This document shows positions 22,117 through 25,100 of a stretch of 64,000 bases of DNA, in pieces. The notes under the pieces were generated by a model. That model was not told where the DNA came from. It did no database searches and worked only from the letters and a program-made list of their open reading frames with translations. This stretch comes from Escherichia coli (GTDB lineage Bacteria; Pseudomonadota; Gammaproteobacteria; Enterobacterales; Enterobacteriaceae). Position 1 is the stretch's first letter, and each line of letters opens with the position of its first letter. The stretch lies in assembly GCF_024700885.2 (NCBI RefSeq), contig NZ_CP117016.1; one strand, written 5' to 3'. The position numbers and the translations under genes were made by a program.

Positions 22117-25100
22117 ATGAGCGGAAAACCGGCGGCGCGGCAGGGTGACATGACCCGCAAGGGACTGGATATTGTGCAGGGTTCAGCAGGGGGGCTGATA
22201 GGTGCGCCGACAGGAGTGGCCTGCTCGGTGTGTCCGGGAGGGATTACCTATGCTAACCCGGTGAACCCGCTACTGGGTGCGAAGGTGCTGCCGGGCGAGA
22301 CGGACCTTGCGCTGCCCGGCCCGCTGCCGTTTATTCTTTCTCGCGCTTACAGCAGCTACCGAACCAGGACACCCGCGCCGGTGGGGGTGTTTGGTCCCGG
22401 CTGGAAAGCCCCCTTCGATATCCGCTTACAGATACGCGATGAAGGCCTGATACTCAACGACAGTGGCGGCAGGAGTATTCACTTTGAACCCCTGTTTCCC
22501 GGCGAGATAAGTTACAGCCGCAGTGAGTCGTTCTGGCTGGCGCGGGGCGGGGTGGCGGAGCAGCACAGTTCGCAGCCGCTAAGCGCGCTCTGGCAGGTGC
22601 TGCCGGAAGATGTTCGCCTGAGTCCGCATGTGTACCTGGCGGCAAACAGCCTTCAGGGGCCGTGGTGGATACTCGGCTGGCCGGAGCGGGTGCCGGAGGC
22701 GGACGAAGTGCTGCCGCCGGAGCCGCCTGCATACCGGGTGCTGACGGGCGTGGTGGACGGTTTCGGGCTTTCACTGGCTTTCCACCGCGAGGCCGCAGGC
22801 GAACTGGCTGGCGAAATCACCAGGGTGACGGACGGCGCGGGCCGTCGTTTTCACCTGGCGCTGACCACGCAGGCGCAGCGGGCGGAAGCCTTCCGTAAAC
22901 AGCGCGCCACGTCTTTATCTTCCCCTGCAGGTCCCCGTTCTGCTTCCTCTTCTTCAGCTTTCCCCGACACGCTGCCCGCCGGTACAGAATACGGTGCCGA
23001 TAACGGTATCCGGCTGGAGGCGGTGTGGCTGACACACGACCCGGCATACCCGGATGAACAGCCGACTGCGCCGCTGGCGCGCTACACGTACACGGCCAGC
23101 GGAGAACTGCGGGCGGTGTATGACCGCAGCGGGACGCAGGTGCGCGGGTTTACTTATGATGCGGAGCACGCCGGGCGGATGGTGGCGCACCATTATGCAG
23201 GGAGGCCGGAGAGCCGCTACCGGTATGATGATACCGGTCGGGTGACGGAGCAGGTCAACCCGGAGGGACTGGACTACCGCTTTGAGTACGGGCAGGACCG
23301 TGTGACCATCACGGACAGCCTGAACCGGCGGGAGGTGCTGTACACGGAAGGCGAAGGTGGCCTGAAGCGGGTGGTGAAGAAGGAGCATGCGGACGGGAGC
23401 ATCACCCGCAGCGAGTATGATGAGGCGGGGAGGCTGAAGGCGCAGACGGATGCGGCGGGGCGGCGGACGGTGTACCGGCTGCATATGGCGTCTGGAAAGC
23501 TGACTTCAGTGATACTGCCGGACGGCAGGACGGTGCGGTATGGCTATAACAGCCAGTTGTAACTGACTTCAGTGACATATCCGGATGGTTTACGCAGCAG
23601 CCGGAAATATGACCGTCAGGGCCGACTGGCAGAAGAGACCTCGCGCAACGGTAACATTACGCGCTGGTTTTATGACTCCCCCCCGCAGTAGCCTGCCCGG
23701 CGCGGTGGAAGACGGAATCGGGGTAACGCGGAGAATAACGCGAAACCGGTACGGTCAGCTTCGGACCTTCACGGACTGCTCGGGGTACATGACGCGGTAT
23801 GAGTATGACCGGTACGGTCAACAAATCGCCGTTCACCGGGAGGAAGGTCTCAGTATTTATAGTCTCTATGACAGCCGCGGCAGGCTGACAGGGCAGAAGG
23901 ATGCGCAGGGGCGTGAAACCCGTTATGAGTACAGTGCCGCAGGCGACCTGACAGCAACGATATCACCGGACGGTAAACGCAGCACCATCGCATATGATAA
24001 ACGCGGGCGTCCGGTGAGTGTGACGGAAGGCGGGCTGACGCGCAGCATGGGGTATGACGCTGCCGGGCGCATCACCGTGCTGACCAACGAGAACGGCAGC
24101 CGGAGTGAATTTACCTACGATGTGCTGGACCGCCTGACGGAGCAGCGCGGCTTTGATGGCAGGACACAGCGTTACCGGTACAGCGCCACAGGGCAGCTCA
24201 TCCGCAGCGAGGATGAGGGGCAGGTCACGCAGTGGTACTACGATGAAGCAGACCGCATCACGCACCGGACGGTGAACGGCGACCCGGCAGAGCAGTGGCA
24301 GTAGGATGAGCACGGGTGGTTAACCACCCTCAGCCATACCAGTGAAGGCCACCGTGTGGCGGTCCACTACGGCTATGACGATAAAGGCCGTCTGACCAGT
24401 GAGCGCCAGACGGTGAAGAACCCGGAGACGGGGGAACTGCTGTGGCAGCATGAGACGAAACAGGCATACAACGAACAGGGGCTGGCAAACCGCGTCACGC
24501 CGGACAGCCTGCCGCCGGTGGAGTGGCTGACGTATGGCAGCGGTTACCTGGCGGGAATGAAGCTGGGCGGGACGCCGCTGGTCGAGTATACGCGGGACAG
24601 GCTGCACCGTGAGACGGTGCGCAGCTTCGGCAGCATGGCAGGCAGTAATTCCGCATATGAACTGACCAGCACATACACCCCCGCAGGTCAGTTACAGAGT
24701 CAGCACCTGAACAGCCTGGTGTATGACCGTGACTACGGGTGGAATGACAACGGCGACCTGGTGCGCATCAGCGGCCCGCGACAGACGCGGGAATACGGCT
24801 ACAGCGCCACGGGCAGGCTGGAGAGCGTGCGCACCCTCGCACCGGACCTGGACATCCGCATCCCGTATGCCACGGACCCGGCGGGCAACCGGCTGCCGGA
24901 CCCGGAGCTGCACCCGGACAGTACACTCACAGTGTGGCCGGATAACCGCATCGCGGAGGATGCGCACTATGTCTACCGCCACGATGAATACGGCAGGCTG
25001 ACGGAGAAGACGGACCGCATCCCGGCGGGTGTGATACGGACGGACGACGAGCGGACCCACCACTACGACAGCCAGCACCGCCTGGTGTTCTACACGCGGA

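Follow-up and report, generated by a model that had tools for sequence, protein, structure and literature searches.

Does a homopolymeric tract that breaks the reading frame of an Rhs gene act as a switch, or is it a fixed lesion of a dead gene? The question is raised by a run of seven C's in the second of two tandem Rhs genes, here called Rhs2, in a 64,000-nucleotide stretch of the Escherichia coli contig NZ_CP117016.1. This stretch is referred to below as the window, and all the features described lie on its plus strand. An earlier note on this DNA had held that the site is slippage-prone and could vary in length within a population, and it had taken an invariant length across populations and isolates as the outcome that would speak against this.

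Rhs2 and its surroundings

The locus is the T6SS-1 island of the E. coli chromosome. Rhs2 (22117..26065), a full-length PAAR-type Rhs pseudogene, is the second of the tandem Rhs genes of this island. The gene vgrG (15756..17864, 702 aa) lies directly upstream of the Rhs pair, two genes before Rhs2. The tandem upstream paralogue, Rhs1 (17931..21578), is a 1,215-aa ORF annotated as partial in RefSeq; it has lost 609 nt in frame between two CACCGGCGTG repeats, and with them aa 35-237 and the DUF6531 region. A 149-aa ORF (21591..22040) occupies the immunity-gene position after Rhs1, and two small ORFs of 82 and 132 aa (26099..26746) occupy an immunity- or orphan-gene position after Rhs2; all three are without a Pfam match. 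An ISAs1-family (H-repeat) transposase (27027..28163) closes the Rhs element.

When repaired in silico, Rhs2 (1,315 aa) matches Pfam DUF6531 at aa 47-123, RHS_repeat (PF05593) in 12 stretches (E = 3.3e-74) and the RHS core (PF03527) at aa 1157-1193. The core ends in a DPLGL motif, after which comes a C-terminal tip of ~55 aa with no Pfam match. The RHS repeats, the RHS core with DPxGL and tip, the DUF6531 domain and the linkage to vgrG mark Rhs2 as a PAAR-Rhs T6SS effector. A functional effector of this type has an uninterrupted ORF, however, and that of Rhs2 is broken by a TAA at 23560, the C7 tract and a TAG at 24302. An Rhs2 100% identical to this one is found in strain 1190 and in 16 further complete genomes. 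For the identical sequence in strain 1190 RefSeq gives 'RHS element core protein; frameshifted; internal stop', and the gene order there is tssC, tssB, hcp, vgrG, partial Rhs, a hypothetical protein and the frameshifted RHS element core protein, followed by two hypothetical proteins, an ISAs1 transposase, yafV, ivy, fadE and lpcA. The C7 tract is an ordinary pseudogene lesion, already annotated in RefSeq.

Positions 23678-23684 are exactly CCCCCCC, the surrounding positions 23670-23690 being ttatgactCCCCCCCgcagtag in the window sequence and the wider context ...tggttttatgactCCCCCCCgcagtagcctgcccgg.... Relative to the in-frame C6 (TCC CCC CGC, encoding S P R), the C7 homopolymer (23678..23684) is a +1 insertion and constitutes the frameshift lesion of Rhs2. 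Frame 1, which starts at the ATG at 22117, reads ...TRWFYDSPPQ* across the tract, with the zero-frame stop three codons past the insertion (23689-23691); the Rhs reading resumes in frame 2 from 23685 and ends at 26065. Deletion of one C in silico (YDSPRSSLPGAVEDG...) gives a 1,315-codon reading with YDSPRSSLP in frame, in which two stops are left, at aa 482 (TAA 23560) and aa 729 (TAG 24302). The window sequence and its frames thus agree with the earlier note, which had placed the frameshift in this tract and had predicted YDSPRSSLP from six C's. The peptide it had cited from Rhs1, YDNPHSELP, is likewise found at the matching place (aa 314, nt 18870), where its codons are TATGATAATCCGCACAGTGAATTACCG, without a homopolymer. 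The tract makes up 7 of the 3,949 nt of Rhs2 (~0.2% of the gene) and is the only C/G run of at least seven in the 64-kb window. Such runs are depleted in the window, shuffling leading one to expect 8.9 +/- 3.0 of them (mononucleotide) or 6.1 +/- 2.3 (first-order Markov).

Nonsense codons and exchange with Rhs1

The other two lesions of Rhs2 are nonsense codons. The TAA (23560..23562; ...YGYNSQL*LTSVTYPDG...) stands where relatives have CAA (Gln), and the TAG (24302..24304; ...AEQWQ*DEHGW...) where they have TAT (Tyr). The TAA is absent from several C7 alleles: of nine C7/C8 alleles examined from complete genomes, five lack it, as do two of the five C7 contigs from metagenomes. It is the youngest of the three Rhs2 lesions. 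The TAG is present in all C7 alleles inspected except those of F344, PCN033 and the metagenome contig L020.

F344 departs from the window in a cluster of sites at 24283-24343, and PCN033 in one at 24304-24475. The segment replaced in F344 shows 0 mismatches to the tandem Rhs1 over 221 nt, and 80 nt of that in PCN033 match the strain's own Rhs1 exactly. Since the patches are identical to Rhs1, the TAG has been erased in both strains by gene conversion from Rhs1. Lesion combinations were also considered as a means of ordering C7 and TAG. All four combinations exist and, because the TAG-free C7 alleles are conversion patches derived from Rhs1, either lesion may have come first. Tandem Rhs1 and Rhs2 share further sequence: a 188-nt stretch (24344..24531) is identical to Rhs1 19542-19729 and a 500-nt stretch (24611..25110) to Rhs1 19809-20308, both 3' of every Rhs2 lesion. 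An in-frame 6-nt deletion relative to several relatives (ACCACT, HHYHY to HHY; 25053..25064, site ~25058) is also found in Rhs1, at ~20256.

In PCN033 C7 is the only Rhs2 lesion. RefSeq describes the gene there as 'frameshifted' only, and setting the tract to C6 in silico yields an uninterrupted 1,315-aa ORF. The expectation that other lesions would still block expression therefore holds in the window, through TAA 23560 and TAG 24302, but does not extend to PCN033. Short homopolymers have broken other Rhs alleles independently, by indels in G runs (G5 to G4 in N3, G4 to G5 in 746).

Tract length, haplotype and history

Probes of 83-86 nt with C5, C6, C7 or C8, in which one difference takes identity below 99%, were used to survey 5,426 complete E. 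coli genomes. The Rhs segment with the tract is present in 909 of the 5,426, the tallies being of the best match per genome, so that second copies could hide other lengths, and the lengths being those of the assembly consensus, in which minority lengths within populations are invisible. C5 in the exact context was found in none of the 5,426 genomes. C6 is present in about 252 (146 of them exact; the other ~106 were obtained by subtraction, and the rows seen were all one-SNP, 84-nt matches with no indel), C7 in the exact 86-nt context in 33, and C8 in one, E300010. An interrupted tract (TCTTCC, in GAT TCT TCC CGC) accounts for about 623 genomes; the one inspected, F9792, has an intact gene. The one natural C6 allele inspected for its annotation, in CFSAN018748 (WP_107236196.1), is annotated as intact, and C6 is also found in N3 and 746. 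A metagenome scan that allowed 4-10 bases between the flanks gave 15 contigs, 10 with C6 and five with C7 and none of the 15 with another length. The same context with N{4,10} had no match in GTDB species-representative genomes, which evidently lack the exact allele context.

The lengths are distributed by haplotype. All C7 and C8 alleles have A at 23725, and the exact-match C6 alleles have G; neither C7 on the G haplotype nor exact C6 on the A haplotype was found in the surveyed genomes and metagenome contigs. The nearest C6 on the A haplotype is that of strain N3. This allele differs at many other sites and is free of both nonsense codons, and therefore looks ancestral, by its sequence, rather than a revertant. 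The C7 allele itself occurs in more than one setting. It is found in PCN033, where identity to the window is 98.28% in the core genes of the flanks (yafV-yafL) and 99.94% in the T6SS part, and in 19KM1831, where the whole vgrG-rhs1-rhs2 module lies outside the T6SS-1 island, with ansP on one side and the ISEc1 transposase ydcC/pptA on the other. C7 thus persists across chromosomal backgrounds ~1.7% apart and at two chromosomal loci.

E300010, which combines C8 with CAA and TAG, represents a further diverged background. Its C8 may be a real change or a homopolymer sequencing error; its ~24 kb of flanks show no excess of homopolymer indels (two 1-nt indels against the diverged background), and the annotation of 47 kb contains two or three 'frameshifted' genes. 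An apparent C6 revertant on the C7 haplotype, the metagenome contig L025, was rejected, having 28 gaps in 2.3 kb and 1.76x coverage.

Compared among isolates, as the earlier note had suggested, tract length does differ within the species, where C6, C7 and C8 all exist, but on the C7 haplotype it is near-invariant. Of the 39 sampled descendants of the C7 event (34 alleles in complete genomes and five in metagenome contigs), 38 keep exactly C7, and no clean C6 revertant was found among the 39. The invariance that the note had named as contrary evidence is therefore nearly what is observed. Its view of the tract as slippage-prone and variable divides accordingly: an origin by slippage is strongly implied, whereas variability at the present day is doubtful. 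On an evolutionary time scale the tract is a mutational hot spot, but it is not visibly hypervariable.

We consider it highly probable that one old +1 slip changed C6 to C7, that C7 has since been inherited as a fixed pseudogene lesion and that a further slip, to C8, has followed once at most. The ancestral in-frame C6 (GAC TCC CCC CGC, D S P R) would have gained one C by replication slippage in a full-length PAAR-Rhs T6SS effector gene, the second in a vgrG-rhs1-rhsI-rhs2 tandem. The shift of frame would have led to an early stop, and the gene would have become, if it was not already, a pseudogene. Two nonsense mutations lie on the same allele, TAA 23560 having come after TAG 24302. The allele would have spread by vertical descent and recombination into diverged chromosomes and a second Rhs locus, its tract remaining constant. 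Indel rates in E. coli climb exponentially with homopolymer length (PMC8510543). C7 would be expected to slip more often than average sequence and far less often than the long tracts of contingency loci, behaving as a fixed lesion that changes rarely, with the single C8 as an instance. The sequences themselves show the tract and its effect on the frame, the distribution of C6, C7 and C8, the common haplotype and the late arrival of TAA, whereas we infer that the mechanism was slippage, that C7 arose once and that the gene is not expressed.

Other readings of the tract deserve consideration. That the true tract is C6, and C7 an error of sequencing or assembly, is suggested by the frequency of homopolymer length errors in long-read assemblies and by L025, whose C6 lies on the C7 haplotype. 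The probability of such an error is negligible, with identical C7 in five metagenome contigs and in 33 complete genomes that were sequenced independently and come from many different laboratories and hosts, and with L025 itself unreliable. C7 could also be real and have arisen from C6 repeatedly, as a hot-spot mutation. It is present at two loci and in diverged backgrounds, which is consistent with this, as are the independent homopolymer indels in other Rhs alleles. Recurrence would not, however, account for the A at 23725 and the otherwise identical 86-nt context shared by all C7/C8 alleles, nor for the absence of C7 on the common G haplotype, which carries C6 in 146 genomes; an identity of 99.9% in the T6SS/Rhs module, against a difference of 1.7% in the core flanks, moreover fits the transfer of one allele. 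Repeated origin is accordingly very unlikely, and a single slip remains the preferred account of how C7 arose.

Two further proposals concern what the tract does now. If slippage between C6 and C7 were reversible, the tract would be a contingency locus, turning the Rhs2 toxin on and off in populations and making their T6SS weaponry heterogeneous. Phase variation classically acts through homopolymer tracts (PMC10710837), E. coli has lengths both in frame (C6) and out of frame (C7, C8), and in PCN033 a -1 slip would yield an intact 1,315-aa Rhs. At a contingency locus both ON and OFF lengths are expected on the same haplotype; the C7 haplotype has 33 C7 and one C8 in complete genomes and five C7 in metagenomes, and the about 252 C6 alleles include no C5. 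An otherwise intact gene, also expected, is found in PCN033 only. In the window switching would have no phenotype, because with TAA and TAG in place a return to C6 alone would do nothing there. The accumulation of nonsense mutations on the C7 allele further argues that the ORF is not maintained by selection, and we regard phase variation of Rhs2 as highly improbable. Alternatively, the extra C might be bypassed by a +1 ribosomal shift at UCC-CCC-C, such that alleles with the frameshift only make a little full-length Rhs2. The zero frame, UCC CCC CCG CAG UAG, does hold CCC-C, a +1-slippery proline motif that re-pairs identically in +1, and the shift would produce the C6-encoded peptide (DSPRSS). 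At the second codon in E. coli, motifs of the type CC[C/U]-[C/U] cause erroneous +1 frameshifting at rates that reach ~1%, but this figure applies to the codon next to the start, and rates are much lower at internal sites (PMC4519876). The zero-frame UAG is two codons past CCC-C, not adjacent to it. A programmed site would be conserved between intact ORFs, whereas nonsense codons flank most C7 alleles, and the flanking ORF bears no sign of selection for intactness. Functional relatives have C6 or an interrupted tract and need no shift. In the window a product is impossible, as TAA 23560 stops translation 39 codons upstream of the tract and TAG 24302 lies downstream. We therefore give ribosomal bypass very little credence, and return to C7 as an inherited lesion.

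The allele of the PCN033 type is a special case. There C7 might act as a de facto reversible -1 switch, or as a leaky +1 CCC-C site, giving rare cells an additional, full-length Rhs toxin; this is highly improbable but, if true, would mean that a pseudogene stays within one step of function through gene conversion from a paralogue and homopolymer slippage. Current understanding is unchallenged by the locus as a whole, and its mild interest lies in this allele, one slip from an intact gene. For annotation, the ORFs on the two sides of the tract are to be read as halves of one dead Rhs gene, not as separate effectors. A study of PCN033 lists three 'RHS element proteins' (PCN033_0249, _0251 and _0252) as candidate effectors (PMC6363058), two of which may be halves of the frameshifted Rhs2. 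More generally, Rhs2 provides a natural example of the decay of an Rhs array by homopolymer indels and nonsense mutations, with patching by gene conversion from a paralogue, and shows a G/C run of this length (7 nt) to be sufficiently stable in E. coli for diverged lineages to inherit it without alteration.

Relation to known systems

Rhs2 resembles the contingency loci of Neisseria, Haemophilus and Campylobacter in that a G/C homopolymer within the ORF sets the frame. Typical contingency tracts are longer than seven C's. Unlike these loci, Rhs2 has a short tract (7) that is near-invariant among its descendants, in an ORF that is decaying and of which no ON revertants were seen. It resembles the systems of +1 frameshifting at CCC-C (tRNAPro, m1G37/EF-P; PMC4519876) in having UCC-CCC-C at a place where a +1 shift restores the ancestral peptide, but differs from them in showing no sign of use, translation in the window being unable to reach or pass the site productively.

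Among Rhs systems, the closest likeness is to the E. coli RHS elements of the RhsA-E type, with which Rhs2 shares a PAAR-like/DUF6531 N-terminus, YD/RHS repeats, a core ending in DPxGL and a variable tip, as well as its location after vgrG and, downstream, small ORFs and a transposase of the ISAs1 (H-repeat) type. In contrast to functional RHS element core proteins, Rhs2 is a pseudogene with three point lesions and a short tip (~55 aa). The site of the 19KM1831 module, between ansP and ydcC/pptA, is the location of rhsE in K-12, and rhsE of K-12 is naturally defective.

Koskiniemi et al. reportedly described, in 2014, recombination between orphan and main Rhs genes in Salmonella Typhimurium. 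Like the Salmonella pair, tandem Rhs1 and Rhs2 are identical to each other over long stretches of the core (188 and 500 nt). No Rhs1-Rhs2 deletion recombinant was observed here. By analogy, recombination of the deletion type could fuse the 5' part of Rhs1 to the toxin tip of Rhs2, leaving the C tract unrepaired, and reuse of the tip through recombination in these stretches would more plausibly occur in the window than a return to C6. Unlike the Salmonella orphans, Rhs2 is full-length with a start of its own rather than 5'-truncated, and its partner Rhs1 is itself damaged by the 609-nt deletion.

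Exchange between the tandem Rhs genes

In strains F344 and PCN033, the part of Rhs2 surrounding the TAG codon (window 24302) has been replaced, over the equivalent of window 24283-24475, by sequence identical to that of tandem Rhs1; the corresponding coordinates at the PCN033 locus (L028) are 10482 and 15290. Gene conversion from Rhs1 has thus mended the nonsense codon in these strains. After this repair, a single C is all that separates PCN033 Rhs2 from an intact ORF. Within the window, Rhs1 and Rhs2 are exactly identical over 188 nt (19542-19729 and 24344-24531) and 500 nt (19809-20308 and 24611-25110), and share a 6-nt ACCACT deletion within these stretches, which indicates that the two genes were recently homogenised. 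Both stretches lie 3' of every Rhs2 lesion, and offer possible substrates for recombination.

Window Rhs1 (17931-21578) carries a 609-nt in-frame deletion relative to the intact Rhs1 of PCN033, with its junction at about 18022, flanked by two copies of CACCGGCGTG. Amino acids 35-237, including the DUF6531 region, are missing; the ORF nevertheless remains open (1,215 aa), and is labelled partial in RefSeq. Downstream of Rhs2 are two small ORFs of 82 and 132 aa (window 26099-26746), which are kept in all close relatives and have no match in Pfam. They are presumed to be immunity or orphan genes that go with the C-terminal tip of Rhs2, which is short and has no assigned family.

Small indels and their interpretation

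Strain 23CRST032 lacks one A at the equivalent of window 23638, 40 nt 5' of the C7 tract (23678-23684), which returns Rhs2 to frame after 13 out-of-frame codons, with both nonsense codons kept. This deletion may be either a chance compensating mutation within a pseudogene or an assembly error. Among other alleles of the Rhs2 family, that of strain N3 is inactivated by a G5 to G4 change (equivalent to window 22383), and that of strain 746 by a G4 to G5 change (column 1320 of its Rhs). Rhs genes appear, from these alleles, to decay repeatedly through homopolymer indels, or else the indels in short G runs represent repeated assembly error. The vgrG gene, intact in the window, is annotated as frameshifted in 19KM1831 and PCN033 by single-base deletions equivalent to window 17238 and 17369, respectively; the two deletions are independent, and neither site has a long homopolymer.

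Larger rearrangements and a second locus

About 12 kb are deleted in E300010, joining window 10817 to 22823. This creates a fusion between tssF and mid-Rhs2, with loss of tssB/C, hcp, vgrG and Rhs1; the fused Rhs2 is also the one that bears the longer C8 allele of the tract.

In 19KM1831, the vgrG-Rhs1-immunity-Rhs2 module (L029 5874-18870) lies between ansP and ydcC/pptA, outside the T6SS-1 island, which means that the module or its allele has moved between Rhs loci. Its Rhs2 has C7 and TAG as in the window module, but differs in the C-terminal tip. In K-12, the ansP to ydcC/pptA interval is the position of rhsE.
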